Source: Torpedo marmorata
Lineage: Eukaryota
Assembly: GCA_977017645.1 (NCBI GenBank)
Contig: OZ360250.1
Coordinates: 25,606,001 to 25,670,000, forward strand
Direction: 5' to 3'
DNA: 64,000 bases
Each line of letters opens with the position of its first letter. The first letter of the stretch is position 1. The notes beneath the pieces were generated by a model. That model was not told the DNA's origin. It saw only the letters and a list, made by a program, of their open reading frames with translations, and searched no databases. This document shows positions 13,450 to 63,616 of the stretch, piece after piece. A program made the translations under genes and the position numbers.

Positions 13450-15780
13450 ATAAAGTTAGACAGTGTGGAAACAGGCCTTTTGGCCCAAGTTGTCCATGCG
13501 AACTAAGATCTAAACACTAAACCCACTTACCTGCATTTGGCCCATATCCCTCTAAACATTTCTTGTTCAATATTTTTATTGGTTTCATCAAATAAATGTG
13601 ACATAGGTACATAACAATAGAATAAAATATTAACAAATCTTATATAATAGTAAAAATGATATTAAAACCTACGTAACATTAAAAAGAAGTGAAGAAAAAA
13701 AAACTATACTAATTATCTATTAATCAATCCCCTCTCTACGGAGGCTACTGGCTTAACACAAACAGTCCACTACTAATAATAAAAAAAAGGAAGATGAGGA
13801 GTGTGGGGTCAAAAACCAGAAATTAATTAATCTTACAAATTTTGAAAATAATTAAGAAAAGAACCCCATAAAGAAACAAAGTTAAGATTCATTTCAGTAG
13901 TGGAACATCAAATTTTTTCCAAAGTCAAACATGTCATCATATCAGACAACCATTGAGTGTGAGTGGGAGGGACAGCACCTTTCCATCTCATTAATATGGC
14001 CCTTCTAGCGATAAGGGAGGTGAGGGCAACTACACAGGATTTTGAAACAGTCAATATCAAACCTGTTGGCTCACTTATTCCAAAGAGAGCAAGAAAAGGA
14101 TTTGGAGTCAAAGTAATATTAAGAAGTAAAGACAAGGTACGAAATACCCCTTCCCAAAAATTGGAAAGAGGAGGACATAACCAGAACATATGATACAGTG
14201 TACCTTCTTCAGTTATACATTTATCACATTTAGAAGAGAGATTAGAATAGAATTTAGCCAATTGGACTTTAGAATAGTGGGCCTTAAATTGTAATAATGA
14301 GTGTCTAGCACAAAGAGAGGATGAATGCACTTGCTTCAAAATAGAGTTCCATGTAATTTCAGAAAATAGCTGTTGAAAATCTTGTTCCCATAGTTTTTTA
14401 ATTCCGTCCAGGGAACTGTCCCTAGAATTTAGAAGTAATTCATAAAGGCCAGATACCACCCCTTTATAATTAGGTTTGAAATTATAAATCATCCCTATCA
14501 TATTAGGCTCCAGGTCTTCAGGGAGCTTCAAAATCAAAGAATTCAAAAAGCTCCTAACCTGTAAATAATGAAAAAAGTGATGTCTGGGTATTTTAAATGT
14601 GGTGGATAATTGTTCAAAAGAAGCAAGATTTTGGTCAGTAAGGATATCTAAAAAGGATTGGATACCTAAATTTGACCAATGATAGTAACTGATATCTTGA
14701 ACCGAAGGTAAAAAGAAGGAATTACCTAAAATAGGACTAGTTAATAAGAATCTATGGTACCCAAAATGCTTTCTAAATTGAAACCAGATTCTCAATGTAT
14801 GTCTAACAACAAAATTAGCAGTTAATTTGGAGGCCAACCGTAAACATTTCTTATCAATGTACCTGTCCAAATGTCTTTTCAATATTGTAAATGTACCTGC
14901 TTCTACCACCTCCTCTGGCAGCTTGTCCAAATATAGCTGCTAGCATCTGTGCAAATTTTGCCCCTTAGGTCCCCTTTAAATCTTTTCCCCATTAATTTAA
15001 ACCTATACTTTGCAGTTTTAGACTTGCCTACTTGAGAAAAATGACTGGGACTACCTATGACTCTCATAACGTTGTATATCTCTACACGGCCACCCTTTAG
15101 CCTCCTTTACTCCAGGGAAAACAGTGCCAGCATATCTATTAACTTAAGACCTTCAGTCCAGGCAATAATCCTGTGAATCTTTTCTGCACCCTCTCTAGTT
15201 TAATCACAATCCTTGCTATAATGTGGCAACCAGAACTGTACACAATCCTCCTGGTGCGGCCTAAACAACGATTTGTAAAACTATAATGTGCTGTCCCAAC
15301 TCATTGCCTAGGCTGACGAAGGTAAGCATACCGCATGCCTTCTTCACCATCCTGTCTACCACTATGTACAGTACTTGTACCCTGGGTATCACTGTTAAAT
15401 AAAACTTCCCAGTGCCCTGTCTTTCATTGTGTATGCCCCGGTCTGCTTTAACTTCCCAAAATGCGTCACTTTACACTTGAATGAGTTAAATTCCATCAGC
15501 CATTTACTTGCCCACTTTCCCAATTGATCTGGATCCTGTTGAAACCTTAGACAACCTTCTTCACTGTCCATTATACCACCAATTTTGGTGTCATCTACAA
15601 ACTTATTAATTATGCTCCCTACATTCTTTCCTAAATCATTAACATATATGATGAATAATAAAGGGCCCAACACTAGTTTCAGGTCTAAAAATGGAAAAGC
15701 TTCCACTAACATCTTCTGCCTCCTACCACCATGCCAATTTTGCATCCAATTTGCTATTCAACCCTGGAACCCAACCATGT
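13450..15780 (-). mobile_element. CR1-clade LINE 3' part, interrupted by an L1 insertion
   Basis: ORF 15395-15745 'LGPLLFIIYVNDL..KFVDDTKIGG'; CR1 C-terminal 'LPEEVVEAGT..KRHLDRY'. Confidence 0.8.
13565..14840 (-). mobile_element. 5'-truncated L1/Tx1-clade LINE (ORF2 C-terminus + 3'UTR)
   Basis: CCHC motif CDKC...HMFWLC; 12-bp TSD TAAACATTTCTT at 13553-13564 and 14841-14852. Confidence 0.88.
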
Positions 15781-16011
15781 ACTCCAACCTGGACCAACCT
15801 GCAATGCACAACCTTGTTATACCATGGAGCTATACTGCAAGGAAACAGGCTCTTCAGCCCATTATTCACAGACACACCAAAGTATCTACTTCTGAGCCAG
15901 TTCCATTTGCCTGTGTTTGGCCCACATACCTCCAAATCTTTCCTATCCACGTACCTGCCTAAATGTCTTTAAACGTTGTAAAATCCATGAAGACAATGAC
16001 CACCATCATGC

Positions 16012-16717
16012 CCTTAAGTTCTTGGGAGTCACTACCTCAGACCCAACACACTAATGGCATCGTCAAGAAAGCATGTCAGCGCCTCTACTTCCTCAGGAGT
16101 TTGCGGAGGTTTGGTATGACATCAAAAACCCTAGCAAATTTCGACAGATGTGTGGTGGAAAGTGTGCTGACCAGCTGCATCATGGTCTGGTATGGGGACA
16201 CCCAATACCCCTGAGCATAAAGCCCTCCAAAAGGTAGTGGACACAGCCCAGGACATCACAGGCAAAACCATCCCCACCATCGAGAACATCTACAGGGAAC
16301 ACCGTCGTCGGAGAGCAGCAGCAATTATCAAGGATCCACACCACCCAGCACACGTTCTGTTCTCGCTGCTAACATCAGGAAAGAGGTATAGGTGCCACAA
16401 GACGCACCACCAGGTTCAGGAACAGCTGCTACCCCTCCACCATCAGACTCCTCAATGACAAACTCAATCAGGGACTCATTTAAGGACTCTTATTTTTGCA
16501 CTTTATTGATTTTTTAAAATTCTCTCTGTATTGCACAGTCAATTTCTTTACATTTCGTTATCTGTTTACAGTTCTTTATTTGTTTACATGTGTACATTGT
16601 GCACAGTTGTTTTTGCACTACCAATAAGAGGTAATTCTGCCTCGCCTGCAGGACAAAGAATCTCAGGGTTGTATGTGATGTCATGTATGTACTCTAATAA
16701 TAAATCTGAAATCTGAA
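16012..16717 (+). mobile_element. Rex1/Babar LINE 3' fragment
   Basis: KKACQRLYFLRSLRRFG...ESVLTSCIMVWYG and KDPHHPAHVLFSLLTSGKRYR are typical of the Rex1 C-terminus; tail aataa(atctgaa)2. Confidence 0.88.
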
Positions 16718-16926
16718 ACTAATCCTTGATTACCTCCTCGGAAAACTCAGTCAAATTTGTGATCAGTAAGTTTACAGATGCCGGAAAGACTGGCGGAGTT
16801 GCAGATAGTGCGGAGGATAGTATCAGTCTTCATATCAATGTGTCAGTTCAATGAGTTGAGAAATGGCGGATGGAGTTTAATCACTATTTCCATCCACAGG
16901 AGTTAGGAAGAGTTAATCTTCCTAAG

Positions 16927-17721
16927 TTACTGAGTTACAATGGCGGCACTGGTGTGGACCCGCGGGGAGCAAGGGAGAGGAGATGCAGCGCTCCCGCGGG
17001 GTCCAGCCGCCCAGTCGTTGAGGTAGCCGATGGTGGTTTTATTTGAAATCCCGCGACCGCGGGGTCTGCGCCCAAGATGGCAGTGCCTATTAATCGGCAG
17101 CAGCCACAGACTCCAGGGAAGTGGAGGACTGGAGCAGGGCACCAGAGGGCAGAAAGATCACCCCCGTCTGAGAAGGAGAAGCAAAGGAGACGACCCTCGG
17201 GACGGTGACCACGGTGGTGAACCGGTGAGGGGCTCTGAGGCTGAAGGACCACTGCATGCGGCGGGCTGCTGGCGACTCGAGGCGAGGAACCCGCGGAGGC
17301 TGTGGGCTGCTGGAGACTGCTGTCGGGGGACTCACGCCGGGCTGCGGACTGCTGGAGGCTGGCTCGAACTGGCTGGAGGATTACCAGGTATCGGAACCGG
17401 GATGCGAGGGGGTGCCGAGGGCACCGAAGGGTTCCTGACCGTGTCGGAGGTTCGGATCTGGAGCTCGGGTTGTCGATGGTTTGGACTGGACTCTGTGTGG
17501 CTGCGGAGGCTGCGGAAGCGCTGGAGGCAAATCTACGGACACTCGGTGACTCTGGGGGGGATTCTCTTTTGCTTCTCTTTCTCTGACTGTAAGGAATGTA
17601 AGAGGCGCTTAGGCAATTTCTGCCGGTGGCGAATCTGTCTGCCTTGCAGCAGGCAAAAAGAAATTTCAAGGAATATGACACTGTTTTATTACTATGACAA
17701 TAAATTGAATCTTGAATCTTG
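16927..17721 (+). mobile_element. Non-coding, non-autonomous retroelement: GC-rich head + Rex1-like tail
   Basis: AAGATGGC at 17074-17081; tail 17597-17721 aligns with the SINE tail at 48763-48886 and ends gacaataaa(ttgaatc)2; homologous copy at about 40.0-40.6 kb. Confidence 0.72.
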
Positions 17722-18819: not shown

Positions 18820-19389
18820 GTAGGTCCAACACTTGAGAGCCTCCGCACACATCTAGGATCACGGCTTTCCCTATAAAGATACTGGGCTCTCCCAAAAAGA
18901 GATGAAGCGGTTTCTCGGATTACAGGGTCACTGATGGGATTTGTCGCATCTGATTTAGAACGGTAAACGGCATTTCTATGGTGGTTAATAGAGAACAACG
19001 GACCTTTTCTGTTTGAGCGTGGAGTTTTGAAGGCTGCATTTATTAATAAACATGCAATCGTACCCCACGTTTTTTTTTAAAGCAGTCACTGATTGGTCAA
19101 TTTACCAATAGAGAAAGATTGAATATTTTTCGATTTATTTTTCAGTCTGTGCGTCCTGTAATTTTATGGAATTTGCGCAGTCTGTCCTCTCCTCTCCGTA
19201 CTCGGCAGTGCCCAGACGTGAAGCTTGTGATTTACTGAGCAGCGTCTCCAGTCTTTCCCCACGCTCGCCTGTGATTCCAGCCTCCAAGGCAAGGGGAATT
19301 GACGAGAGCGCAGTCCAAAACCCCAGCGCCAAAGGTGGGTCTCACTGGCGCTTCCCCCCGGATAACTGGGTCCCATTCTCCACAAACAG

Positions 19390-19559
19390 CCGGAGCCGAG
19401 ATTAACTTCGGGAAGAAGATCAGCATCCCCCGGGATGTGATGTTGGAGGAACTTTCGCTGTTGAAGAATAAAGGATCCCAGATGTTCAAAGAGCGACAAC
19501 GCAGGGTGGAGAGATTCATCTATGAGTCACATCCCGACGTCTTTAACCCAGATTCGATG
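19390..19559 (+). CDS. MYOZ1: Myozenin-1 coding exon 2
   Basis: GAEINFGKKISIPRDVMLEELSLLKNKGSQMFKERQRRVERFIYESHPDVFNPDSM is the calsarcin motif. Donor ATG|GTATGC, phase 0. Acceptor aaacAG 19388-19389 gives the required phase 1, but this 5' boundary is less certain. Confidence 0.9.
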
Positions 19560-20326
19560 GTATGCATTTCTTCATTCAGGATGTTCAAATAAAGATTCAT
19601 GCACAACCTTTAATCCTATCTCAGAACAAATTTTGGACACATTCTCCCCATTCTATTTAACCTTGCCACTCATGGCACCTTCCCATTTCTCCTGAGGAAT
19701 TTCCTATTGTCTGACAGTGAACGTTCACCACCTGAGATAAAGGGAATCCTAACAAAAAATGCTGTGATGAATATTTAGGTATGGGAAGGCCACAGGCTAT
19801 TACTGTACCCAATGATACTCATACCTTCACCTTTGCTTTCTTTGCTTTCTCAACTACCAGATGTGCTAAGTTTAACATTTAACTGGCTGAGTCAGTCATC
19901 TCCATCTCATGTACTGTTGGGCCAAATCCTGTACTTTCCCAGCTCATCCCTGAGAAAGGATCTTCTGACTTCCTTCCATTGTTGTTAAAGTCTTCCTCAA
20001 ATGATTGCCCCCCTGCCCTCATCAACCACACCCCTGACAAGAAGGGTGAGGTCCCACTTACACCAAAATGGACCCTCTCCTTTCAGTCCCAATCCCCTGG
20101 CTCACCTGAGAACTCTATCCCGATCATTCCTGAATCCTGATCACTCAACATTGTCACTTCTGTCTCCCCCATGCACCACTTAATCTCATAAAACCAATCC
20201 TTTGCTCTCTTACTCCATTCTCACTAAACTTCTGACTGTACAAACTTCTCTTCCAGGGGCCTGTGTGTTCTTCAGCCGCAGAGCTCCTCACTGGTCCGCC
20301 GCCATAGTCGTCTCCTCTTCATCCAT

Positions 20327-20555
20327 AAATTAAATTTAAATTTAGACATACAGCATGGTAACAGACCCATGAGCCCGTGCCGACCGAATACCCCAATTAA
20401 CCTACAATCCCCATATGTTTTTGAAGATAGGAGGAAACTGGAGATCTGGAGGAAATCCACGCAGACACGGGGAAAGCGTATAAACTCCTTTCAGACAGCG
20501 CTGGATTCGAACCCCAGTTACTGGCACTGTAATAGCATTGTGCTAACCATGCCGC
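20327..20555 (-). mobile_element. V-SINE (same family as 9571-9815)
   Basis: Direct similarity: tttagacatacagca.ggtaacag...gaggaaac...ggattcgaacc. Confidence 0.85.
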
Positions 20556-22005
20556 TCATCTGCTGTAACCTTGGTTTTGGTTGACATGGCACCACCTCCC
20601 AGATCTAGGTCTCCTATATTTACCTTGAACATTTGCTCCCTCTGTGTAATCTAACTGTGGACCAACATCCAATGTTGGATGAGTTCAAATTTTATCTAAC
20701 TAAGCCTTGGGAAAATCGAAGTGATTCCTTTGGTTCCTGTCATTGATTCTATTCCGTTCTTTCAATTAAATCTCATGTTGAACCAGACTATCATTCTCAG
20801 CCAATTACTAGTAAATGTAGGAATCCTTCTTTACAAAGAGGATCATGGGACAGTAGTTGTGCTGGACGGAAGCAAATACTATCATCATCACAAGAGATTT
20901 AGTATTCAGCAAATTAATGGGGCAAAAGTCTACTGGATGGCCTGTGTCCTAGAATCCTAAAAGAAGTAGCTACCAAGGTAATGGATGCATCATTTATATC
21001 CTCCAAAAATCCTTAAATTCCAGAAGTAGATCAGACTGTGGAATAAGAATCGTCAGTTTTCTATCCAGACCATTGAATAAAAAAAAGAGAAGAATAAACG
21101 TGGAACTCCTATAAGATGGTAATTAGTTAAAAATTATTGAACTTATTTGAGTATTGGATGATACCATGCAAGGGGAATAGAAAAACACTGGATCCACAAG
21201 CATTTATCAGGATTGGTGAGATTTTACATATAACGTAGAACACTACAGCACAGTACAGGCCCTTTGGCCATCGATGTTGTGCCGACCTATATATTCCTAC
21301 TGAAAAATTATTCAAGATGGGTTCTCAAAGTATAAGAGCAGAAGAGAAGGTATTTGATCATGAAAAAAAATTAATCCAACAGATCATGTGACCTGTTTTC
21401 TGTTCATGGTTCAATTATGTTTTCAAATTCAATAGGATTAAAGGGAGAAGATATCAAGAAACAACAGAATGGTTTGAGTGATGGGACTAGGTTAATTGAA
21501 ACTCTATAGAAGAACATTTCCAAATTGATCAAGTAAAACAGGGATGGTGAAGAGCTGAATAAAACAAAGGACTTGGTTAATCGAGGTCTGACAGGAAAAT
21601 CTGGCAGCAACAGATAGGCAGGATTGTGGAAGTATTGGGGATTATTTTTTAAAGGAAAACATCACCATTACTCTTCAATTGGCAGTATTGCCTTACTTAA
21701 TGAACTTTGCCATGAATAAAGGGCCTTAAGGCTCCTGGACACTACACCACTTCAGGTTTATTGGACCTGACAATGCTCCATACGCTGCTCTTTTTCTGCA
21801 CTTCATTTACCCGCCCCATCTCAAAATGCCAAATACATCCATAACTGGAAACAGTAAAGCCTTGTTCAAGTAATAGAAGTTGAAAAACAAGCTCTGAAGC
21901 CAACTTCAATTGAAACTAACTAGAATCCTGATCTCCTCACCTCTGAAGATTGATTAAAGTTTAATAAGTTTCATGTTTTTTTTCCCCCCAAATTTAATTT
22001 TCCAG

Positions 22006-22267
22006 GACAACCTCCAGAAATTCCTCCCTGGCTCTGGTGTTGTGCTGAAGACTGGGCCAGGTGGTATCCAGGTAATTGGAGAGGTGAACTCCAAATTCCA
22101 AAGTGGGTACAGCCATTCTGGAACACATTCAAAGGGCGCAGCACCAGCACCGTACCCAAAACCTCAGCATCTTGCCGCTGTCTCTGGGATCATTGGGAAA
22201 CAAGGAAGTGGCCAAGGAGATGGAGGGAGCGGAGGGGCTGGCGGTCCAGAGGGAAGTGGGGTTCAGG
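22006..22267 (+). CDS. MYOZ1: Myozenin-1 coding exon 3 (Gly-rich)
   Basis: DNLQKFLPGSG...GSGQGDGGSGGAGGPEGSGVQ; acceptor tttccAG 22004-22005; donor G|GTAAGC; phases 0/1. Confidence 0.92.
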
Positions 22268-23589
22268 GTAAGCATGTGAATTAGGTTCACCTTTCAAACA
22301 CTGAATAGACTTTGCAGAACTTACTTAGAAGAGAGGATGAAAGAGTGAGTAAGATTACACTGGAACCTTGTCAGTAAATACTGAAGTACTCTGAAGCAGT
22401 ATTAGCTATTCCACCTCATGATGCATATTTGCATGGTAGGGAAGGATAGATGGGCAAACAGTGAGCAGGCAATTCAGAGGAAAAGAAGAGATGGTTTTGT
22501 TGTGTCAGTGTTGGGAGCCTATCCATCTCCACAAAATTCTAAAAGTGTTTGAAGATTTTAACCTTTCCCCAGAGTCTCCATTCCAGAGACCTTTGAAGTC
22601 TACCGAAGACTTGGAAATGCCAATGAGCATTGATCATCATATGACTTGAATATTAGAATAAAGTCTACATTTTACACAGCTAGCAAAGCTGCAGTGAAAA
22701 TAAAGACTATAACCAATTTCAAATTGGTTTGAACGCATGATGTTCAGTTACGAAATTGGTTAACATCGGATGTGTTGGTTCCATAAAATATGTGCAGTAA
22801 TGTTAACAGACTACTTTACATTACATTGAATGTCAATGCATCTCCTTTATCAATCAATGCACAGAAGAAACCCAAATTGAACCTATGAAAATTGGGAAGA
22901 CATTCAGCACCAATTTAGAAACAAGGTTTTCCCCTCAGTGTTGACAATGACCAAGGAAAGAGTTGTTTTTTTTTTCTGTTGCACTGAGTTGTTGAACAGG
23001 TGAACTTAAAAGAAGTGCAACTTTAACAAAATGCTATATCAGGAGTTTGGTTGGCATGAGAATTTGGTGCAGAGCAAAAAGAGAAGTTGCTTTATCCCTC
23101 CAATAGATGATGATTTACGCAAGCATCAGGAAGTTAAGTACAGTACAGGTATTTGCATTTTATCGAGAGCTTATATGCGTTAAACTGTTTTCCTTAAGAT
23201 AAAGGTGGATACATAGCATTGAATATATTTACAATAGCTCAGCAATAGTCGAAAACAAGTAAATAGAAGCCTCAGCTGATATATAAAATAAATATTGGGA
23301 AATGAAAACTTAACAAAAATAATCTGTGTCTGATGTTAAGAATAATATTACTTCAAAAGAAAAGGCTGATAATGTTGTCAAGAAGAGTAGTAAACCTGAC
23401 GATTTGGGTAAAAGGTAACAGTGAATAATTTAAAAAAGAAAAAGGAAGAAATAGATTATAAATAAACAAAAATACATAAAAATAGTTAGAAATTTTAAAT
23501 CAGTAAAAGGAAGAGTAATGATAGTTAACATTATAATGTGAATTGTTTGAGCATTAACTAAATATTTTGTATTTATCTTCATGCAGAAG

Positions 23590-24980
23590 AAATAATAAGT
23601 GGAACAATAAGGGTTTTGGTAAAAATAATTACTATCACAAAAGATAAGGTACAGGAGGAAGTAAGGGGATTGAAACTAAACAAATCTGCATCTGATAAAC
23701 TACCCAGTTTTTAAAAAATCTGTCTGTGGAATAGCTGAATTAGTGATACTTCAAAATTCCTTAGGTTCTGGAACTGTTCCAGTAGTAAATACAACACTGC
23801 ATTTTAAGAAGAAAGTGAGAAAATGTAAGAAACTACAAATCTGTTACCCTGGCATATGTTGTCATCTAAACATTGGAATCTATTATTATGAATGTTGTAG
23901 TTGGTATAAGGTGGATTATATTTTGATTACGTAGAGGCAACATGCCTTGAGATTTGATAAACCTTGTACAATTTTTAGAGGTTGGAATTTTGGCAGGAAA
24001 AGTAATAGATGACATTTTCAAAATGGAATAATTAGGTACCGCACTATAGTTATTAAATGAAACCAGGATTATTGGGAATGAATAGAGGATTGATTAATGG
24101 ACAGAAAACATAATAGGAATAAATGGGTCCGATTCAGGATGCCACATGGATCACTGTGGGGCCCTACGTTTTCACAATTTATATTAAAAACGTGTGAAAA
24201 ATCACTTCTCCCAAGTACGAAACTCGATGCAACCAGCAGGCAAAACAGCTCCAAAGGGATACAGATTATTTATGCAAATAGTCAATAACATGAAATATAA
24301 TGTGCCGTGCAATTAGAAAACAATATTTTTCAATGGTGTAAAACTAGTAAATTTTGGTATACAGAGGTATGCTAATTCATGAACGAAGATAATAAGTATG
24401 CAAAGAATTAGGAAGGCACATGTCATGATAGTCTTAACACGAGAGGGTTGGAATGCAAAAGAAAGGAAGTATTTCTAAATTGTTTAGGACTTTGCAGAAG
24501 TCTCAGACAAGTGTGCAGTTTTGATCTTTGTTCCCAAAGAAGGATCATTTTGATAGATTCATTGGAATGATAGGGTTGTCTAATGAAGAAAGATTGAGTA
24601 AGGTTGGCCCATACTCAGGTGTTAAAAAATATGTGATCTATCTGGGAAATGCATTCTGAGAAGGATTGATATAGTAGATGCTGAAAGAAGGTTTACTCCA
24701 CTTGGCGAATCTACTAGAACAAGGAGGCATATTCTCTGAAACTGAGATTTCTTTATATGACCCCTGCAATTTACCTTAAGTTGAGTGAATTCAATCAAGA
24801 CTAAGGTGATAGGGTTCTGAACACAAAAGAATATAGGTACAGGTGGTGGTAGGTGATATCATGTGTGTACTCTGACAATAAATATGAACTTTTCAACTTT
24901 GGGTTGTGGAAATGGGAATTGAGGACCTGTAGTTTGAGATGTGGAATCAATCATATTATTGATGCTGGAGCAGACTTGAG
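23590..24980 (+). mobile_element. Heavily degraded CR1-like LINE
   Basis: Residual RT-like 'MPHGSLWGPTFSQ' and CR1-type 3' sequence. Boundaries approximate. Confidence 0.5.
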
Positions 24981-25959: not shown

Positions 25960-27990
25960 TTACTGAATGCTTCAAAGGCTTCCAAAAATAATATTTAAAA
26001 TAAATATCACCATCTGTTGCCCTTGACATTGAGGAAGAATGAAAAATATTGGAAATGCTAAGCATAGCGAGAGAAAATATTGTAATGCATCTAGCATTTT
26101 TAAAAGTGGATAAATAACCAGGCTTGGCCAAAATGTATCTCAGACTCTTGTAAGAAGCAAAGGAGGAAATGGCACTGACTATCATTTTCCAATTCTCCTT
26201 GGTTGGAGGCATTAAGCGAGATAAATCAGCACAAATCAACATTTGGAATGGCACAGGTTAGTCAAGGACAGTCAGAATGGATTTGTTAAGAGTACATCCT
26301 GTTTGAATCTGACTAATTATGTTGAAATTTTTTGAGGAAGTAGTAAGGAATATGGATGAGTAATTTTGATGGCAAAACCCGGCATGGCAGACTAATCACA
26401 ATGTAAAAACCCATGTGGTCAAGGAATGTTACATTTTTTTTCAGTAGTAAAGGGTACGAGAGCTTTTGTAATTGGAGGCTACAACAGAAAAGTTCTATGG
26501 ATTCACTTTTCCTTTGTGGCACTCCTTGATAACTGGGACTTAAATGCAGAGACTGTGATTAGGAACTTTGCCAATGATCTCAAAACTGGCAATTTGGTTA
26601 AAACTATAGAAGATTCGAACCAGCAAGAAAATATCAATCAACACAAATATGATATATGGAATTCAGTCCAGAGCATTGTGAGATAATGATTTTGAGCAGG
26701 GCAAACAACTAAAGGGAGTAGGTAAAAATAATAGAATACCAAGAAGTACTGAGCAAAATTGGGATCTTGGAAGCGCACTCCACAGGTAAGGTAGTTAATA
26801 AGACATTGGTGATATTTTCCTTAAGTGCTTCAGGCACACAGTATAAATGTAGAAGGCCATGCTAGAACTCAAAGAAAAAAATTAGTTCGGCTGTAGTAAG
26901 AGTATTATTGTAAAGAGTATTATTTACAGTTCTGGTCACCGCACAACAGGAGGGATATGATAACACAAGGGAGATGCTGAGGAAAGGTAAAGGTTCCATT
27001 ATTGTCACGTAATACTACATTTAGAATGTAACATACATGAAATTCTTTAATTTTTGTCTACCATAAGGCAGACAGAGAGTCACTACTTTGTCCAGCGCCC
27101 CTCACAGAAACCTACAGCACCTGGTGTTCCTAGGCGATCTCCCCTCCAAGTACTGACCAGTCCTGTGCCTGCTTAGCTTCCGAGATCAGACAATCCCAGT
27201 CGTAGTCAGGCTATTGGTGCTGTACAATTATATTAACAGGATGGAGAATTATAGTTATATGGAGAGACCAAATAGGCTATTTTCTCTGGAGAAAAGAGGC
27301 TGCAGGCAAATTTAATTGAGGTGTACAAAGTTATGAGAGAACTATTAGGCACAGTGGTGCAGCTGTTTGGTCTGCTGTCTCAACACCAGAGACCTTAACT
27401 TCAGTTGCTATCTGTTTTCAATTTGCATGTTCACCCTGTGACAATGTGGGTTTCTTCTGGGTGTTCCATTTTCCTTCCATGATCCAAAGACATGCGGGTT
27501 CCTTGCCCCTAGTATGTAGGTGAGTAGTAGGATCTGGGGGAAGGTGAGAAGAATGTGGGGAGAATAAAATAAAACATTAATTTAGGATTTGTGTAAAATG
27601 GGTGCTTGATGGCCATTGTAGACTCACTGGGCGAAAGGATTTGCTTCCATGCTGTATCTATCTATTTAAAAATACAGATAATATGAATAGGAAGAGACTT
27701 CTCCTTTAGTTGTTAATAACAAAGAGACTTAGGTTTAATTTAATTTAAATTAAAAGAGAAGTTGACAAAATGTTAGTGAGAGTCTGAAGCTCACTGCCTT
27801 AAACGGTGATGGAGGCAGAAAGTCCCATCTCGTGTACAGTATTAGAAACTAGTGAGCACTACCTGCTGTAAACAATCAGGTTACGGACTGAGACCTGGGA
27901 AGTGGAAGTAAGCCAAGCATTCATTGCATCCATACCCATACAATGGGCTGACTGGTTTTCTTGTGCCCTAAATTTCTAAGATTCTCTGAA
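25960..27990 (+). mobile_element. Degraded CR1-like LINE hosting a 5S-SINE and a V-SINE (about 27345-27665)
   Basis: Residual CR1 RT motifs (cagaatggatttgttaag...aaattttttgaggaagta; tttgccaatgatctcaaaactgg). Confidence 0.55.
26983..27213 (-). mobile_element. 5S rRNA-derived SINE (SINE3 type) with Rex1-like tail
   Basis: 27108-27213 reverse-complements to tagcctga..gtctgatctcggaagctaagcaggc.cagg.ctggt.agtacttgga.gggaga.cgcct.ggaa.accaggtgctgtagg, i.e. 5S rRNA lacking about 14 nt at the 5' end. It is followed by a 125-nt tail ending ggaacctttaccttt. Confidence 0.9.
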
Positions 27991-28217: not shown

Positions 28218-29059
28218 TAAAAAAAAATTTATTTTATTTAAATTTTTAAATCACAAAATACATAGAATAAAATGCATATATTTGAAAATACATGTGATAT
28301 ACGTTTTCTCCCCCCCTTCCCACCCTACCCTCCCTAACCCCTACATCCCCACTACTCTTTAAAAAAAAAAAAAAAAATTATATACCGGTATATAAAAAAA
28401 TATATAGTAAAAGAGAAAAAGAAAGGTAGAAAAATAGAGTGAGGAGAAAACAAGCTACAAACTAATTCTACCATAGAGGTTATTTTCGCCAGTGGATCCG
28501 ATATCCAGAGAATTTAAATTGTTAAACCCATAATTCTCATATATGGGCCCCAAATTTTCAAGAAAAAATGATATTTATTACGCAAATTATAGGTAATTTT
28601 TTCTAATGGTATACATGAACGTAATTCTGCATGCCATCTTTCTAAATTTAATTCTACATCTGACTTCCAAGTAATAGCTATACACTTTTTCGAAACTGCT
28701 AAAACTATACGTAAAAATTCTACCTGATACATATTTAATCTATTTCTAATACTAAATTTTCTAATATCTCCAAATAAAAATAACATAGGATCCATTGTAA
28801 ACACAACATTAAAAATTCTCTCTAAAAAATTCTTAACTTTCAACCAAAAGTCTTGAATTTTTGAACATAACCATGTACAGTGAACAAAAGAGCCTATTTC
28901 ACTCTTACATCTAAAACACATATCTGATAATGCTGGATTAAATTTCTTTAATTTTTTAGGTGTTAAATATAATTGATGAAAGAAATTATATTGTACTAGT
29001 CTATATCTAACATTCAAGACTTTAGTCATACTTAATTTACATAAGTCTCTCCAATGATT
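28218..29059 (-). mobile_element. 5'-truncated L1/Tx1 LINE
   Basis: ORF2 end with CFRC...HCTWLC; 17-bp TSD TGGTTCTTGCATTCATT at 28201-28217 and 29060-29076; same family as 40848-41343. Confidence 0.9.
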
Positions 29060-32000
29060 TGGTTCTTGCATTCATTAAGCATCCCAAGGTAATGATCAAG
29101 TGACCAAGAGGAAGTGCAATAGGCGTGCATGCAGACTTTCAAAAGGCACTTCATAATTAACCACATCAGAATTAATCAGAAAACTGAATCTCATGAATTT
29201 AAAAAAATACAGTCATATAATTGACTTGAGAGAGGAGGCAAGGATCATGTTGATATGATGTATTTCTGAATGAAGAAAAATATGAATTGGGGTGTTTCAG
29301 GGATTAATATTTAGCAGCAATGCTTTTTATTTTATTGGGTACAGGGAATTTCATTTGAACTTTGCAGTTGATATGAAACTTGTCAATGTGTTCAATAGTG
29401 TGAAATGGTTCTCTTTGGCAATAAGCAACCTGCAAGAGCAGTATAATCTGAGTGGTTCTAATTTGAGGGAGACGTAGATCAGAGGACCCCAGGGTGAACA
29501 ATACCTTTGAAGATGGCAGGGCAAGTTGATCAGGGTGGTTGGGGAAGTCCATGGAATACTTCCTTTGTAAAGTAGATATTGAACGTGAAGACAGAGTAAT
29601 GCTAAACTTTTACACCTTACTAGTTAGGCCACAGCTGGAAGACTGGCCATCAAACCTCAGGAAGGATGTCAGGTTCATAGAGCGCATGAGAGGAGAATTG
29701 CCAAGGATGAGACACTTCATCTGTTACCTGACTGAATTTGGCAGGTTTGTTCTCCTCACAACAGGGGAGATTAAGGGGGAAAACAAATTATAAATGACCA
29801 AGGGCCATTATGGAATAAGGAGGTTGAAATTGAATGAAGTACCTCAAAGGATGGTGGAATCAAATTCCATAGTTCAAAAGGCAATTTGACACATGAAAAA
29901 AGATAATTAATGTGTAGCTCCCTGAGGGAAAAGACAGAGAGTAGGACTAAATTGGATGTCAAAGAAATTATAGGCTGAATGACCTCAGCCAAATTTAGAA
30001 ACTGACAAACTGTGGAACGATTCAGCAGAGTTCGCCCTGATAATTTTTTCCTGCATTTTCTGCACTGAACATAACATTCTTTCTAACCTTCTCTGATTCT
30101 CCCTCCATTAAGGGCTGTACAGATCAGTAAATAGAAACAATAATGTCCCAATTCCCTGACCCTATTCTGGGTCAGGTGGCTAACATTTCACCAATTACCA
30201 TCTGAGGAGGCAAAACATGGATAGTTAGAACATGGAAAATCTGTATGGAAATAGGAGGAGATTCTTCAGGTCCTCAATTAAGCAATTCAATATCATGATC
30301 TCTGACCTATTTTCTGCCTGATTTCCTTTAAAATATGATTACATTCTGAATATTAATATGGGAAGATTTACTCTCTTTTATATTTACGTATTTATAATAG
30401 GTGCTTTTACTGTTCATGAACACTTGGAATGTTCATTCATTTTTTAGAACATGGGGTTTCACCCTTATGATCCCCATCTAGGGAGTGGGCTAAAGCTATT
30501 CCGTAAGCATTTTCATCTAATATAGATGTGAAGTGGGCACTGCTTTGGTGTATTGTAAATGTTCCCTAAGCTGCCTATTCTCCCTTATGTCCCTTCTCCC
30601 TTCCTTCACTACAGAACTTGTTATAATTGCCTGACTTGGTTCCCCAATCAGAAAATGTCACAATTGGGGTACTCCATCACAAACTGGAAAATGGACCACT
30701 TTCTGATCACTCACTTCCCAGCACCAATCCCAAACTGTACACCTAGCTCAGCATGGGAGCACCCGATCCCAAGCTTTCTGCCACAGTTTGATTTTTGGCT
30801 GGTTCAGTTAATTCTGCATTGAGATTTAATGATATGCAGAAGAGTGGGGAGAATGTGGAGCTACTGTCTTCAGGAGAAAGGTCTGTATTTGGGAGGATGT
30901 TCATCTTTTTTTCACTCTTTGAGCATTTAGTTAAAATAAGCAAGAGGTCCACTGTAGACATCTCTATCCAAATGAGTAATCATTGCACAAACAAGTGCTA
31001 TGTGCAATATTAAATGCATAAATTACTGGCTGGGAAAAAATAAATGGCTGGAGAGAAATTTGGGGTCCATAGCTTTTACTGATAACTGGTGCTCTGAACC
31101 TTCTCCATTTTCTGCCCTGCATAAACTTGCATTTTGGAGCTGATTTTTATTTTGAACTGAGGCATATTTTCTTTACAGTGCCTCTGTTACCTCTTAAACT
31201 GCTGTAGGTGCACTGACAGCAAATCTAGGCCAGCAATTATAATTAATGGTGCATTTGTTGAATGCTTTTTCTATTATTTTTCAATTCTTAATGAAACCTT
31301 GGTTGGAAAATAAAATTGGGTCTGGTTCGTTCCCACTACTGCTGTGCCCCATTTCCCAGACATTGCACGTACGAACATTCGTATTTGTGCTTTTCTATAC
31401 GGATATGTTGTGTTGGAAGAAATACTAACGGCCACTATAGGTCTTACATTGGATCATTTCACACATCTGTTTCAGAGGTAGGTGTTTTTAATATTAATGT
31501 CTTTGACATGTGCTCTTGTCATGTGATTTCCCTGAGTGCTAATGTGATTAGCTAAATCGTGGAGTTTGCCAGGATATTAGCCTACCATATTTTTTGTGCC
31601 CGTCATTTCTCACTAGCCTTCCGTCTCTCTGTTCTTTCCCATATTGTGGCAAATTAAGGAAGAATTCTTGTGCAACGGATATGTGATGCACCAGCATTGG
31701 TCTATTTAAATTCACGGAAGTCAGTGCAAACAAATTTCATTTGGAATTTTAATGTGGAAATGTTGCTGCATCATGCATTTACCACATATATCTGGGAATG
31801 TGTTTTGGCCCTTTATGTTTAGTTAATTTTTCATGTGGAATCTGCAACCATCAACAGCACAGACACATTGGTTAAGTAAATTTGACAAAATGTTCCAACT
31901 GTCAGGAATATCCTAAGAGACCAAAATGTTCTTAATTGTATGTTCCTCATCTCCAGCAAAAATTGGATCAAGATAATTAAGTTGCCACACCAATCATAAA

Positions 32001-39415: not shown

Positions 39416-40029
39416 ATTTCCTATCTACTTCTGTTCTCCTAGAGTGGAACTGTTCCACATCAACAGCCTAACCCACATCCAGCTGGTTCATTGGTTGACA
39501 AACCATCACTACTATTTACTTCACTGATGTTTACTCTCTTAATTATCAGCCCAGAACCAAACAGATGCTCCAGACATAATCAACCCAGGATGAGCAGCTT
39601 ATTCAGGCATCTCACTGCTCATGGGTCTGATGGTTGGTTGAACCCTCTGACTATCAGAAAACACTCAGCAAGGTGGGCAGATCATTCATCAGAATTTACC
39701 TGAAACTGTTTCCCTTTCTACAAATGCTGCGAGAACTGCTAAGTGCTTCTACCATTTTCTGGTTTTATTTTTGGCACTTTATATTGAAAAGGTGCAACAA
39801 TTGTTGATGGAATTGTCAGTTAAACAGTTTTAAACGATTTGCAGGCTGTTTGCAGGAGCAGCTCTGCTGTTAGTCCAGAACCGGGAAGAGCAGGGAGTGG
39901 GACCACGGCCTTTCAGGGCACCTCCACGGGGTCTTACTGCGTGAATGTCCTGCCCCACAACCCCCGTGCAGCTCTAGATTGCCTGCAGAATGGACCTGGT
40001 GACAATTTTTACATCGAAGATCCTCGGAG

Positions 40030-40643
40030 GTCTGAATTCAAGATGGTGGTCCCCATGTTTGGCAGCCCAGACTTCCATGGTTACAGACTCCGAGGAAGGA
40101 GCCAACAGTGAAAGGCACCAGAGCAGGAGAGCACTCCACCCCATCCCCACTGAGGGGGAGAAGTCTTGGAGAGGTCCCTGCAGAGTAGGAAACTACAACA
40201 GCAAACCAGGCTCCAGCTCAGGGCTCAGCAACCAAAGGCCTCACAACAGGCCACAGGAGACTGGCTTCTGGGAACCCATCATCAGGTCCGGGATTCACAA
40301 AGGTGCTGATGGCGAGCAGGGCTCCCGAAGCGCCTCGGGTGCTGATGGCTTTCTGCTCACTCTGGAGATTTGAAAACAGGGATTGAGGAGGTGCGACTTG
40401 GGTCTTTAACTCAGGTTCACCGCTGGGCAGAACGGGAGGCCATGCAGCTGCAGAGGTTACAGGGGCGCAGGAAACAACGGCGACAGAGGAGATGGAAGGA
40501 TCCATGGACACAATGTCTCTGTGGGGACACTCTATTGCTTCTCTTTCTTGTCTTGGTAGTGATGCTGTATTAATAGTGCCTCTTTGTGTGCCTTTACAGG
40601 GCTGACAAAGGAAAGGTTTTTGTGTATTTTGTGCACTTGACAA
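40030..40643 (+). mobile_element. Diverged second copy of the GC-rich-head / Rex1-tail element (5' end may extend to about 39835)
   Basis: caagatgg..acagactcc.gg.aag..ggcaccagag..ggagaag..ttgcttctctttct..tgacaataaa shared with 17070-17721. Confidence 0.65.
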
Positions 40644-40847
40644 TAAATGCAATCTTAAATCCTTGGGAATGATAGGATGGGTGTTTGCCCTTGCAGATGC
40701 AATGTGTAACAGCAGGGGGAGCTCTCAATGGCTACTGGGTCTTTGCCTTTACTGAAACCTCGTGTGACAGAATGAATGAAAATCACGAATTGTCTGATTA
40801 AGAAACACACACGTTCAAAGACATAATTAAGAAACTGCTAACATTAA

Positions 40848-41343
40848 TTTAGTATTAAAAAGAAATTAAATATGTTTCAAGTAGAATTTTTACGAATTGC
40901 TTTAGCGGTTTCAAAAAAATGCATTGCTATTACTTGGAAATCTGACTTAGATTTAGGATTAGAAAGATGGCATGCAGAGCTCCGTTCGTGTATACCACTG
41001 GAAAAAATTACTTATAATTTACGTAATAAATATCATTTCTTCTTGAAAATTTGGAGCCCATATATGAGAGCTGTGGGTTTAAGGATCTGAAGATCTCTAG
41101 ATATCGGATCTACTGGCAAACTTGACCTCCGTAATAGAATTTGTTTATAGATGATATTCCCCTTATTCTATCTTTTCCTTTCTTTCTTTTTTCTATTTTT
41201 ATTTTTACTTTATATTACTAGATTAGTGGGGATGGGGGGGTTAGGGAGGGGAGGGAGGGTGAAAATGTATCACATGTATTTTGACAATTTTATATTTTAT
41301 GTATTTTGTGATTTAAAAGTTTAAATAAAAAAAAAAAAAAAAA
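40848..41343 (+). mobile_element. Recent 5'-truncated L1/Tx1 LINE with poly(A)
   Basis: 19-bp TSD AAGAAACTGCTAACATTAA at 40829-40847 and 41344-41362; TT/AAGA site; intact A tail. Confidence 0.92.
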
Positions 41344-42047
41344 AAGAAACTGCTAACATTAACTTTAGAACCTGCTCTTTGGAAAGTTTAGAACTGAATA
41401 GTAAGGGGACTGAAATAGGTGCACCATTATTTTCCTCGTATCATTCAGTGGGATGCGCTCCAGGGCGTGATAAAATTTTCCCCTCGTGACCAAACACCAA
41501 TTATTGTCTGTGCTCTAAAAATCACTGCAACTTTCCCAATTCTTTTTGGAATTCACTCTGTTATTGATTTATTAAAGATTTTTTTTTCAGACGACTAACA
41601 AATAGGATAAAAGGAATAGCTGCTTACTGGCCTCCAAATTGGGCAGGAAGTGTGTACGCATTATGAGTATTTTCATCAAAATAATAATGGCTGAAACATC
41701 TGCACGAAAACAGCACTTATGCTCTCTGTAGCAGTCACGGATCTTCTACCATTCTTTTTTTTTTTTTTTAACTTCTTGGGCAGATCCTTAGGATTGAGGA
41801 TAACTTGCTTCCTCCCTAGTTTTCTGATTTCTGGGGAGACTGATGAGACCAATGTAAGAATTGCAGATTCTACCACAGATGCAACAGGAATTTGTTTATT
41901 GTCATATGCACCAAGGTACAGTGAGAAAGTTTGCTTTGAGAGCAGTCCTGTCAATTTACATTCATAGTACAGCAACAAAAACAGTACAAAGTGCAGAGTT
42001 ACAGACAGCGATCAGTTAGAACAGGACAAACAAAACATTATTTTATT

Positions 42048-45769: not shown

Positions 45770-46724
45770 ATTTCAGACGCCGAGTGATTCGCGGTTTGAA
45801 CGTGCCTGATGTCCGAAAGGGCTGGATCATCTGCAGCGTGTCGGGGCGCGGGAGGCTGCGATCGTCGCGCTCCACGGTGGTCGAGGCACGTTGACCCCTG
45901 ACCTGGCTGGAGAGGGAGAGGGAGGGGGAGTGTTAGTGACTCGGGTGGCATCAACCCCCTCTCATCACCCGGCTTCTCTCAGTACTCTCCATCCCTACCC
46001 TTACAACCCACCCTCAGGGACCTTTCTATTCCGTTCAAGCACTTCCCCCGACGTTCCCACCTCCTACACCCAAATTCCCGCAAATTGTTGCCCTTTCCTT
46101 CATCCATCTTCCCCAATTCTTCTCACCCCATTCCCTCTCATGTCTACACCCACATACCCCAGTCTGCCTCCAACTCCTTCCCTCCTCCCTCCCATCCACA
46201 CCCTCCTCCCCTCCCATCCACACCCTCCTCCCCTCCCATCCACACCCTCCTCCCCTCCCATCCACACCCTCCTCCCCTCCCATCCCCTCCTCCTCCCCTC
46301 CCATCCCCTCCTCCTCCCTCCCATCCCCTCCTCCTCCCTCCCATCCTGTCACCTCTTCCTCCCGTCACCTCTTCCTCCCGTCACCTCTTCCTCCCTCCCA
46401 TCCCGTCCGTCTCCTCCTCCTCCCTCCTATCCCCTCCCCTCCCCCCTCCCCCCTCCCCCCTCCCATCCCCTCCCCTCCCCTCCTCCCCTCCTGTCCCCTC
46501 CTCCCCTCCCATCCCATCCCCTCCTCCCCTCCCATCCCATCCCCTCCTCCCCTCCCAACCCGTCCCCTCCTCCCCTCCCATCCCGTCCCCTCCTCCTCCT
46601 CCCTCCCATCCCGTCCCCTCCTCCTCCCTTCCATCCCGTCCCCTCCTCCTCCCTCCCATCCCGTCCTCCCCTCCCATCCCGTCCTCCCCTCCCATCCACA
46701 CCCTCCTCCCTCACATCCCATACC

Positions 46725-46787
46725 CTCAGTGGTTAGAGCACTGGTCTTGTAAACCAGGGGTTGTGAGTTCATTCCTCGCTGGGGTCT
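46725..46787 (+). pseudogene. 5'-truncated tRNA-Thr(TGT) sequence serving as a SINE head
   Basis: CTCAGTGGTTAGAGC A CTGGT-CT-TGT-AA-ACCAG GGGTT GTGAG-TTCATTC-CTCGC TGGGGTCT; anticodon at 46748-46750; 5' acceptor strand missing and T-loop altered. Confidence 0.88.
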
Positions 46788-46916
46788 CACCAATGTGAGG
46801 GGCGCTGGACAAAGTAGCGACTCTCTGTCTTCCTTACGGTAGACAAAGTTAAAGAATTTCATGTATGTTACATTCTAAATGTAGTATTACGTGACAATAA
46901 ATGGAACCTTTAACTT
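46725..46916 (+). mobile_element. tRNA-Thr-headed SINE with the same tail as the 5S-SINEs
   Basis: 46794-46916 is nearly identical to 48763-48886 and to the reverse complement of 26983-27105. Confidence 0.88.
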
Positions 46917-48142
46917 CCCATCCACACCCTCCTCCCCTCCCATCCACACCCTCCTTCCTCCCATGCCATACCCTCCTCCCCTCCTGTCCCATCTCACACC
47001 CTTCTCCCTCCCATTCTGTATCCTCCTTCCCTCCCATCCCATTCTTCCCTCCCATCCCGTAGCCTCCCTTCCTTCCCTCCTATCCCATACCTCTTCCCTC
47101 CCATCCCATACCTCCTCCCTCCTTCCCTCCCATCCCATACCTCCTCCCTCCCTCCCAGCCAATACCACTGTCCCTCTCATCCTAAACTGCCTCTATGTAA
47201 ATCTTCTACTTCTATCCCTATACCCCTCTCTACCCCAACCAAATGGTACTTATCCTATTGCCCATCCCTATCCCATCTCTTTTCCCTATCTGCCCCCACC
47301 AGTCCCTTGCCGTTCCAATTAATCACCCTTCCACCACTGTACCCCATACCTCCTCCCATCATGTCTCATTCCCATCTCCATATCCCTCCCAGCTCCCATC
47401 TCTGTCCTGTCCCAACTCTGCCTACTCAACCCTCCATCTACCCCATCCTCTGAAGATTCCTTTCTCCCTTCCAAATCCTCCTTCATCACTCCTAGATTAA
47501 GCCCCTCCTTCCCCCCGCAGAGATTAATCACTTCCTTCCTCCCTCCTTCCAATCAATCGCCTCTGCCCTCCCAGATCAATCATTTTTTTATGACCCTTCT
47601 CTCCTTGCTTCCCTTCCTTCCCATTCCCTCCCTTCCACTCACTTTCCACATTCTTTCCTCCTCCCTCTCTCATCAATCCCCTCTTCCCACCTAAATCAAT
47701 CCCCTGGTTCCTCCCTACCCAGATCTGTTACCTCTATGAGTTTAATACATCTCACCTAAAAATGTTTATTTCACCAGAGATGCTGCTTGTCCACAGATTA
47801 TTTCTGGTGTTCTCTGTTTTTATTTTAGGTTTCTAGAATTAGCTTTTTGCTTTTGCATTAAGTGTTGTACTGTAGTCCACAACTCTATTTTAGTTTAGGT
47901 TTAACAGCATGAATATTGAATTTTCTAATTTTAGGTACAGACCCATATGATTCCATTATTTCCATCTCTTCTTCACCTTCTTCTGTACTCAATTTTTTTC
48001 TCTCTTTCTCTAACTTTTCTTGACCCCCTTCCTAATAGTTTCTCCTTCTACCAGTCTCCACCTTTCACACCTTCTCTCCATCACCTCTGGGGCCCCTTCC
48101 CCAGCTTCTTTCCTCTATATATGTATTTTTACCTTTTTACCT

Positions 48143-48410
48143 TGGTCTTGATAAGGGGTTTTGACTCAAAATGTTGACTAACCAGTTCTACCCATGGATG
48201 TAGTCTTATTTGCTGAGTTCCTCCATCAATTCTTTGTACACTGAGGCTGAGTCAACAAAACAGAAAAAAAAGAAAAACACAAAGACTTCAGATGCTGGAA
48301 TCTTGAGCAGACAAAGAATTGCCGGAGGAATTCAGTGGGTCATGCAGCATCTATGGGTAGAAATCGTCAGTCAATATTTTGGGTCTGAACCCTTTATTGA
48401 GATTAAAGTG
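48143..48410. repeat. Tail-to-tail Penelope-type terminal repeats
   Basis: gtcttgataagggg..aaaatgttgact..ctacccatggatg followed by its inverted homolog; more copies at 48890-49050. Confidence 0.65.
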
Positions 48411-48733
48411 TAAAGGGGGTGATATTATGTATAGAAAGGGGAAAGAATCTGGGAGGGGCGAAGAGGTGAAAGGGTGTAGGACAGAAGGTGTGAGAAGATG
48501 TGAGAAGGGAGAGATCATGTGGGGGGTGGGAAGAAAAGTTAAAGAAAAAAAAAGTCCAGGAGTAGGTAAGGAAGAGTTGAAACAGATGGTGATGGGGGTG
48601 ACCTAAAGTTTGAAAAATCAGTCACTTGAAGTCTCTCACACCTGTCTTATCCCCTATCACCTCTCGGCCCTTCACCAGGTTAATTTTCCCTTTATATTAC
48701 ACAATATTATACATTCCCTTTATATTATATTAC

Positions 48734-48886
48734 CCTAGGAACACCAGGTGCTGTACGTTTCTGTGAGGGGCGCTGGACAGAGTAGCGACTCTCTGTCTGC
48801 CTTACGGTAGACAAAAATTAAAGAATTTCATGTATGTTACATTCTAAATGTAGTATTACGTGACAATAATGGAACCTTTACCCTTT
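48734..48886 (+). mobile_element. 5'-truncated 5S-derived SINE (second copy)
   Basis: cctaggaacaccaggtgctgta.gtttc (5S 3' end) joined to the tail at the same junction as the 27-kb copy. Confidence 0.9.
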
Positions 48887-63610: not shown

Positions 63611-63616
63611 GTGTAG
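62948..63616 (+). CDS. Unassigned acidic/coiled-coil ORF (222 aa) inside the BEL element
   Basis: Open for 669 nt in AT-rich DNA, in the same frame as gag-pro; no RT motifs; GTG start only. Confidence 0.4.
   Translation: MNKKITFEEKKTDQCENKSMVFKTTLKELISSEIDESEILEDVADNTIDYSCVIESNTGIKQVTENKSECRFCSSENTTDKANEEILQCDVKLENTENCADGIKNNVNDNLMQLNSENKMLKGELEILDNQENSKQKDLIVSKTRKVRKRKKRITAEEMNTVIEERDSALSKCKRLEEEINILKENKLLVNNTKQVTLKTNQKCKLNVQQLTMQKECDITRV

Follow-up and report, generated by a model that had tools for sequence, protein, structure and literature searches.

The minus strand of the window, by which we mean the whole 64,000-nt stretch of DNA analysed here, contains a segment that resembles 5S rRNA, raising the question of whether it is a displaced 5S gene with its spacer, a pseudogene, or the head of a retroposon and, in the last case, which LINE moves it. 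A reading made from the sequence only had proposed a 5S-derived SINE (SINE3), and this interpretation is supported here by an Rfam 5S match, dispersed copies and an empty insertion site. The locus is very probably best explained as a member of a high-copy, recently active electric-ray SINE3 family with a head from ray 5S, a tail resembling those of CR1-group LINEs and a tRNA-Thr-headed sister family. Composite structure, dispersion, the empty site, 5' truncation, subfamilies and the sister family were all directly observed. The features of the full-length copy (c1) are as follows:

26983..27224, minus strand: copy c1, full-length 5S-headed SINE (ends of X1 contigs cluster at 26983 and 27223-27224; an X6 contig joins 26985 to 27221 at the empty site)
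27108..27224, minus strand: 5S rRNA-derived head, 5S positions 4-120 (RF00001, 44.4 bits; 68/77 identical to stingray class II)
27192..27224, minus strand: rewritten 5' third of the head, positions 4-36 (pair probabilities, folds, Rfam consensus structure)
27164..27178, minus strand: box A, 5S 50-64 (sequence)
27156..27161, minus strand: intermediate element, 5S 67-72 (sequence)
27131..27148, minus strand: box C, 5S 80-97 (sequence; differs from stingray class II at 84, 91 and 97)
27108..27110, minus strand: 3-T run at the head/tail junction (sequence; stingray 5S genes have a 4-T run at the same place)
26983..27107, minus strand: tail of 125 nt carrying a GACAAT(A)AA motif and ending in the terminal repeat (the tail occurs three times in the window)
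27075..27103, 27055..27074 and 27005..27040, minus strand: three predicted tail hairpins (fold z -3.21, 1/200 shuffles as good)
26983..26993, minus strand: short 3' terminal repeat, unit 5-6 nt (sequence; loose ends at 26983/4 and 26988/9)

The element spans 242 nt and comprises 5S positions 4-120, a 3-T run and a 125-nt tail (5S position p corresponds to window position 27228-p). An Rfam scan of the 64 kb returned two matches, a tRNA at 46714-46787 (+) and the 5S match at 27109-27227 (-), which covers model positions 1-120 of RF00001 with 44.4 bits (E 5.9e-6), above the gathering score of 38. Four of 24 public sequencing runs (X1, X2, X6 and X14, from organisms A, B, C and F) were compared with 26750-27450 at 85% likeness; X1 may share the window's own source and is thus not independent, while the other three come from other studies. 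Because the loose ends of X1 contigs cluster at 27223-27224, or 5S position 4-5, we place the end of the element at 27224 with the first three 5S bases absent, rather than at 27213 with a 5S part of about 105 nt as first proposed. The promoter motifs recognised at that time do lie on the minus strand at 27168-27178 (box A) and 27139-27148 (box C), and box A, intermediate element and box C are kept with one, one and three differences from stingray class II, respectively. The limits of these three elements in c1 are ones that we assume to follow those of the Xenopus 5S promoter. The c1-private change at 27137 (5S 91) reverts in ~96-99% of depth in all four runs. The whole element is predicted to fold better than any of 200 shuffles (z -4.30), with separate values of z -2.63 for the head and -3.21 for the tail.

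The reference for the head was a set of 30 stingray 5S clones covering +44..+120 (PMC3123226, supplement 1), which were compared by eye and do not represent the host's own 5S. Rays have two 5S classes according to the available parts of that study, and at diagnostic site 60 the c1 head is nearer class II, from which it differs at 9 of 77 sites (62, 67, 73, 84, 91, 97, 102, 112 and 118); site 62 is ray-like in organisms B, C and F. Given this likeness to the stingray clones, the head is of ray 5S descent. With 68 of 77 positions identical and an Rfam score above gathering, it lies within the SINE3 definition, which asks for a 5' end with a minimum of 60% identity to 5S across 60 nt or more. The deviations said earlier to be common to two copies are real when set against ray 5S, as the change at position 97 occurs in 1/30 stingray clones and that at 102 in 0/30; together with the extra 125-nt body, these common changes of c1 and the truncated copy c2 bear out the view that the copies are not independent 5S pseudogenes.

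Positions 4-36 of the head are far more diverged than positions 37-120, which hold the promoter, a pattern reported for SINE3 heads in the accessible text of PMC10886601. The divergence appears to be non-random with respect to folding: in a model that rests on one copy, c1, positions 4-12 pair with 107-115 (probabilities 0.51-0.98) and an 8-bp hairpin joins 29-36 with 41-48 (probabilities 0.86-1.0) at the site of the open loop C of real 5S, giving stronger hairpins. The rewritten third is found family-wide, with X1 depth steady at 2.4 million over 27182-27205 (85% likeness). Changes in the helix II pairs 15/64 and 17/61 were considered as SINE-specific compensation and rejected: since 61 and 64 are native in stingray 5S, and 15 and 17 match the start of the stingray class I gene (a stretch that may be primer-imposed), these pairs were inherited from ray 5S and are not new.

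Three dispersed tail copies, in both orientations, lie within the 64-kb window; the earlier count of two had missed the one behind a tRNA-like head (tail 46794-46917). The two further copies are:

48734..48885, plus strand: copy c2, 5'-truncated and 5S-headed (5S 94-120 plus tail), promoterless (96.7% over 152 nt, E 3e-69)
48688..48733, plus strand: c2 5' junction, probable 7-bp target duplication and 39-nt AT-rich filler (host repeat colinear with another copy)
46714..46917, plus strand: copy c3, tRNA-Thr(TGT)-headed sister SINE (Rfam tRNA 37.9 bits; tail likeness)

The tail of c2 (48762-48885) is identical to that of c1 at 120/124 positions. Of the identical junction claimed for these two copies, GTTTC holds; the base directly before it differs, and c2, at 48.7 kb, is 5'-truncated and keeps only the last 27 nt of the 5S, without box A and most of box C. 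A truncated copy of this kind is dead on arrival. Its probable duplication occurs at 48688-48694 and again at 48881-48887, there overlapping the terminal repeat, and the host repeat becomes colinear with another copy after removal of the insert, the filler and one duplicate. Beside c2, at 47917-48620, a common repeat occurs as two inverted copies, 68% alike over 330 nt, with a sub-threshold and likely spurious Rfam match to MIR7533.

In c3, a head at 46714-46787 is followed by a 6-nt linker and a tail that is 93.7% alike to c1 over 127 nt (117 of 123 aligned bases identical), and the two heads join the tail at the same first base. The anticodon loop reads UGU (Thr) in the Rfam alignment, and ARAGORN called no gene here. 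Copy c3 lies in a C/T-rich satellite (~45900-47750; GC skew -0.73, 22-bp period in part); a 21-bp sequence around it resembling a target site duplication was rejected as satellite sequence, the flanking 21-mer occurring six times.

Retroposition left several hallmarks of the kind that the sequence-only reading had asked for, namely an orthologous empty site, a truncated copy with a probable 7-bp duplication, and a 3' terminal repeat. The empty site for c1 is present in organism C, in one contig of one run (X6; 2,694 nt, depth 20.1), whose alignment runs over 26763-26985, leaves out 235 nt and resumes over 27221-27449; the short side of the alignment has 223 letters. A 10,575-nt contig of X2, compared on its right side, also stops at 27221. 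Because the empty site keeps 3 nt matching the SINE 3' end and 3-4 nt matching its 5' end and shows no duplication, we interpret c1 as a blunt insertion with microhomology at its ends. The insertion target is the following:

26780..27345, plus strand: old LINE relic that we take to be CR1-like (the two sides of the empty site align in order with the LINE at 57.6-58.0 kb)

A slower alignment of this relic with the LINE at 57.6-58.0 kb was marginal (1/200 shuffles as good), and blastn found no match between the CR1-like LINE and the c1 flanks joined together. High depth was observed at 26918-26965, within the relic.

The sequencing runs indicate a dispersed family. Matching contigs number 21,507 in X1, 18,775 in X2, 15,155 in X6 and 1,349 in X14, with depth concentrated on 26983-27224, and contigs bridging head and tail are present in all four runs. 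At the 3' end (26983-26989), at least 303, 1,357, 738 and 81 contigs of X1, X2, X6 and X14, respectively, have loose ends. At the 5' end, at least 188 contigs end at 27219, 27223 and 27224 in X1, and at least 227, 107 and 17 end at 27215 in X2, X6 and X14, where a variant with a first helix longer by one base is followed by unrelated sequence. Among the 24 of 1,184 loose-end clusters listed, agreement beyond both ends is 0.35-0.49, and therefore the flanks differ from copy to copy. Summed depth on the element (1.8-3.1 million, against 12.3 in the left flank in X1) hints at a very large family without being a copy number. At 242 nt the element is under 1 kb, interspersed and non-tandem, consistent with the SINEBase definition in the sections of PMC3531059 that are accessible, dispersal being judged from contig counts rather than an assembly count. 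Outside these runs, the tail pattern matched metagenome contigs at two loci through a common 18-mer attributable to chance, and three patterns had no matches in viral contigs. Near-identical vertebrate-type 5S genes with GC-rich flanks were present in three unrelated bacterial assemblies (L003:241-360, L004:265-384 and L005; Rfam 79 and 76 bits for two of them); they are probably contamination, look edited in places, are atypical as vertebrate-type 5S and were set aside as a reference for the head.

Diagnostic bases separate the lineages in both head and tail. The variant at 27084 accounts for 0.3% of depth in X1 against 97-99% elsewhere, that at 27051 for 3.7% against 95-98%, and that at 27166 for 0.2% against 75-94%. 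The variants at 27078 and 27132, absent from c1 and c2, reach 55-61% in X1 and ~4% or less elsewhere, so that organism A contains at least two subfamilies. At the CpG sites 27008/9 and 27135/6, paired C>T and G>A changes fit methylation decay. As many as 13,884 of the 21,507 X1 contigs reach a likeness to c1 of 95% or more. Judged by the lineage-diagnostic bases and these closely similar contigs, the family is older than the four organisms and went on amplifying in each. The sister family also extends beyond the window. At least 11 contigs of X14 leave the reference at the junction (consensus agreement 0.78), their consensus agrees by eye with 26/30 bases at the 3' end of the c3 tRNA head, and 9, 176, 75 and 15 contigs of X1, X2, X6 and X14 carry a c3-type tail variant. 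From these junction contigs and the occurrence of c3-type tails in all four runs, we infer that c3 belongs to a tRNA-Thr SINE2 family and is not a one-off chimera.

These results bear on three other accounts of the element. A dispersed 5S rDNA unit (an orphon or a variant 5S class) whose tail is non-transcribed spacer would explain the full-length Rfam match and the retention of much of the fold, and could draw on the existence of two 5S classes in rays. This account is refuted by the diverse flanks: flanking sequence is unrelated at both ends and an empty site exists, and the spacer explanation, posed beforehand as a test of the SINE reading, also fails on the occurrence of the same tail behind a tRNA head. 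Neither a tandem array, a constant spacer nor a 4-T terminator, as expected of a 5S rDNA unit, was found; the first three 5S bases are missing, the score of 44 bits falls short of the 76-79 bits of intact vertebrate-type genes, and by eye the tail has no likeness to the stingray spacers given in PMC3123226 supplement 2 (class I whole, class II for its first 160 nt). We regard a 5S unit as scarcely credible. Scarcely better placed, and largely refuted, is the proposal that a LINE or tail-only element picked up cellular 5S or tRNA anew at each insertion by template switching. Such products are described in the portions of PMC5499810 available, and each head is an almost complete cellular RNA attached at the identical first base of the tail, but the copies have common changes absent or rare in ray 5S (97 and 102), the rewritten 5' third is family-wide, and the lineages differ in their subfamily bases in the head as well as in the tail, making this account very improbable.

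A third account accepts a true retroposon but has it copied from a single locus, or a handful of loci, transcribed under the control of upstream sequence, and treats the internal 5S promoter as weak or unnecessary. The box C change at 84 and the intermediate-element change at 67 in lineage A, along with the small number of sharply defined subfamilies, would suit such master loci. Conservation is nevertheless concentrated on the promoter-holding positions 37-120 while 4-36 diverged, following the SINE3 pattern noted above, and 5' ends cluster near the 5S start, so that we consider it improbable. We retain a SINE3 family using its internal promoter as the preferred explanation.

The mobilising LINE is a separate matter. 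Twelve motif sites outside the three copies were checked for tail likeness, two of which were positive, and a third related 3' end follows coding sequence:

17597..17720, plus strand: related tail ending a GC-rich, apparently non-coding element at ~16.94-17.72 kb (upstream-of-motif alignment beats 300/300 shuffles)
40554..40663, plus strand: another related tail, at the end of the GC-rich, apparently non-coding element at ~39900-40665 (beats 300/300 shuffles)
15948..16720, plus strand: Rex1-like LINE 3' relic, RT C-terminus 15948-16456 and then 3' UTR (tblastn E 5e-25; nhmmer 16636-16718, E 0.004)

The elements at ~16940-17720 and ~39900-40665 are probably non-autonomous retroposons too, dependent on the same LINE group. 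An nhmmer profile seeded with c1, c3 and the tails at 17.6 and 40.6 kb, which were picked via a motif partly common to the relic, had two matches beyond its seeds and c2, with E 0.004 for the 3' UTR at 16636-16718 and E 0.02 for a fragment at 24849-24891. The RT C-terminus preceding that UTR is related (tblastn E 5e-25) to that of the LINE at 42-45 kb, which bears RVT_1 and PF09004; both are presumably Rex1/Babar elements. In direct comparisons with the relic UTR, c1 scored weakly, with 10/200 shuffles as good, against 6/200 for c2 and 0/200 for c3. The LINE at 42-45 kb was itself rejected as the partner on account of its own unrelated end (71/200 shuffles), and no LINE with this exact tail was found in the 64-kb window. 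A comparison of six tails yielded one stem of 7 pairs (-4.3 kcal/mol) with little covariation, and the folds of three related tails are no more stable than expected of shuffled sequence (z -0.4 to -1.6). The accessible text of two sources describes Rex1 elements as terminating in a conserved 3' UTR with an oligonucleotide repeat (PMC6274825) and gives rays the highest Rex1 coverage among the vertebrates sampled (PMC13343379). From sequence comparison, the mobilising LINE is probably of Rex1 type; the Rex1-type partner suggested beforehand thus gains moderate, indirect support from the profile match (E 0.004).

The same SINE3 could instead be mobilised by L2, CR1 or another member of the CR1 group whose AT-rich end is similar. 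The available parts of PMC7245038 assign the mobilisation of vertebrate SINE3 families to the CR1 clade, and the likeness of the tail to the Rex1-like UTRs of the window is distant (scores 41 and 33, against a 99th percentile of 48 for the window). The name Rex1 for the reverse transcriptases of the window is, moreover, our own assumption, none among 120 listed relatives being so named. On the other side, the only coding-linked 3' end matched by the tail profile follows an RT C-terminus of PF09004 type, and the CR1-like LINE at 56.9-58.3 kb gave no notable match. We therefore regard a partner other than Rex1 as unlikely, if far from negligible.

Under the preferred reading, a ray 5S rRNA gene would have supplied the head, whose internal control region may recruit TFIIIA, TFIIIC and Pol III, as is usual in SINE biology. 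Pol III termination follows a 4-T rule. No run of four or more Ts occurs on the sense strand of c1, c2 or c3, which agrees with the earlier remark that the junction run is TTT only, and the first such runs lie 102, 42 and 362 nt downstream; this absence is permissive only for read-through. Because the terminator is reduced to three Ts, Pol III would read through the 125-nt tail and stop at the next T-run in the flank. The 5' third, outside the promoter, would have been rewritten into stronger hairpins, such that the predicted fold is no longer that of a working 5S rRNA. The tail may mimic the 3' UTR of a CR1-group LINE, most likely Rex1-type, a step that is moderately supported. A LINE reverse transcriptase would bind the tail stem-loop, a 3' structure recognised by a stringent LINE in the accessible text of PMC5135761, and prime on the short terminal repeat by target-primed reverse transcription. 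Such priming would give the blunt or short-duplication insertions and 5' truncations, products that are observed here. The tRNA-Thr-headed sister uses the same tail from the same base, which may reflect either exchange of the head or capture of the tail on two occasions.

Comparison with described systems, for which we rely on the available portions of the sources, places the family within a known type. Zebrafish SINE3 and AmnSINE1 (DeuSINEs; partner CR1-4_DR; PMC3747384) are vertebrate elements that also have a 5S head and a LINE-like tail, but by description they differ from c1, in which the tail is Rex1-like rather than CR1-like and there is no room for a central domain because the 125-nt tail follows the head directly. 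The part of c1 behind the head aligns with the 3' tails of other elements, which argues against a DeuSINE, V-SINE or CORE-SINE central domain. In salmonids, 5S-headed OS-SINE1 and tRNA-headed SlmI and HpaI are found on one LINE tail, RSg-1 (PMC3747384). OS-SINE1 differs from c1 in being a DeuSINE. RSg-1 may be Rex1-type, and if it is, OS-SINE1 would be a direct precedent for a Rex1-driven SINE3. Paired tRNA and 5S families with a common 3' part or partner include CoeSINE4/CoeSINE5 of coelacanth and HaSE1/HaSE3 of a moth (PMC5786205), as well as Ped-1/Ped-2 of springhare (PMC3747384); these use RTE/BovB LINEs, whereas the c1/c3 tail is CR1-group-like with both heads joined at the same base. The 5S/tRNA pair pattern is therefore already known from coelacanth, moth, springhare and salmon. 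SINE2-5_NV with Rex1-24_NV in the sea anemone Nematostella (PMC3747384) unites a SINE with a Rex1 LINE, which weakens the earlier expectation that such a partner would be unusual, although its head is tRNA-derived and its host a cnidarian. That 5S-derived SINEs are less common than tRNA SINEs is in line with PMC7245038. In cartilaginous fish, the host class of c1, HE1 (a V-SINE with partner HER1), SacSINE1 and SINE2-1_CM/CmiSINEs are described as tRNA-headed, with conserved central domains or L2/CR1 tails, and none is listed as 5S-headed in the parts consulted.

There is thus good support for the c1 family as a new electric-ray SINE3 accompanied by a SINE2 sister, of a type itself known. No 5S-headed SINE from rays or sharks is described in the literature that we consulted, which included the available parts of PMC5499810, PMC2746220, PMC3123226 and PMC9004415 and few subscription papers; Repbase, Dfam or the SINEBase table may hold the family. 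As a tentative and rather doubtful extension, we posit that selection refolded the non-promoter third of the 5S head, with a longer terminal helix and a closed loop C, the RNA keeping the promoter while escaping the TFIIIA/L5 5S RNP route; that this would be the first domain-free vertebrate SINE3 with a Rex1-clade LINE and among the most abundant young electric-ray SINEs; and that it was born by an exact head swap with the tRNA-Thr SINE on a tail common to several non-coding retroposons.

Lineage-specific subfamilies and empty orthologous sites make the family a source of insertion markers for electric-ray phylogeny. Because c1 passes the Rfam gathering score, members of its family are also likely to be mistaken for 5S rRNA genes in annotation. 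With both heads attached to one tail at an identical position, the 5S/tRNA pair offers a clean natural test of SINE promoter exchange, and if the partner is Rex1 the tail defines what the Rex1 reverse transcriptase recognises.

Copy c1 lies in repeat-rich DNA just past myozenin-like exons (19275-22284; Calsarcin match 19275-19589). Elsewhere in the window, which is vertebrate genomic DNA, a long ORF at 4251-6983 is synaptopodin 2-like, a SYNPO2L exon with 93% identity to the Narcine bancroftii protein, 81% to Pristis and 74% to Mobula; these identities mark the host as a batoid of electric-ray type. SYNPO2L and MYOZ1 presumably form a conserved gene neighbourhood. Several other mobile elements were observed. 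The LINE at 42040-44900 (-) is near-complete, frameshifted and Rex1-like, its RT 76-80% identical to teleost proteins, which would fit the ray-teleost Rex1 horizontal transfers described in the accessible part of PMC13343379. Two ORF2 C-terminal relics occur at 13908-14939 (-) and 28514-29071 (-), the first without a Pfam match, and 28228-28758 matches 40846-41334 at 76%. Both relics are, we assume, L1/Tx1-like. At 60272-63616 (+), an 884-aa ORF with SAP and DUF1759 domains is followed by a 229-aa ORF, in what we take to be the gag region of a BEL/Pao-type LTR retrotransposon.
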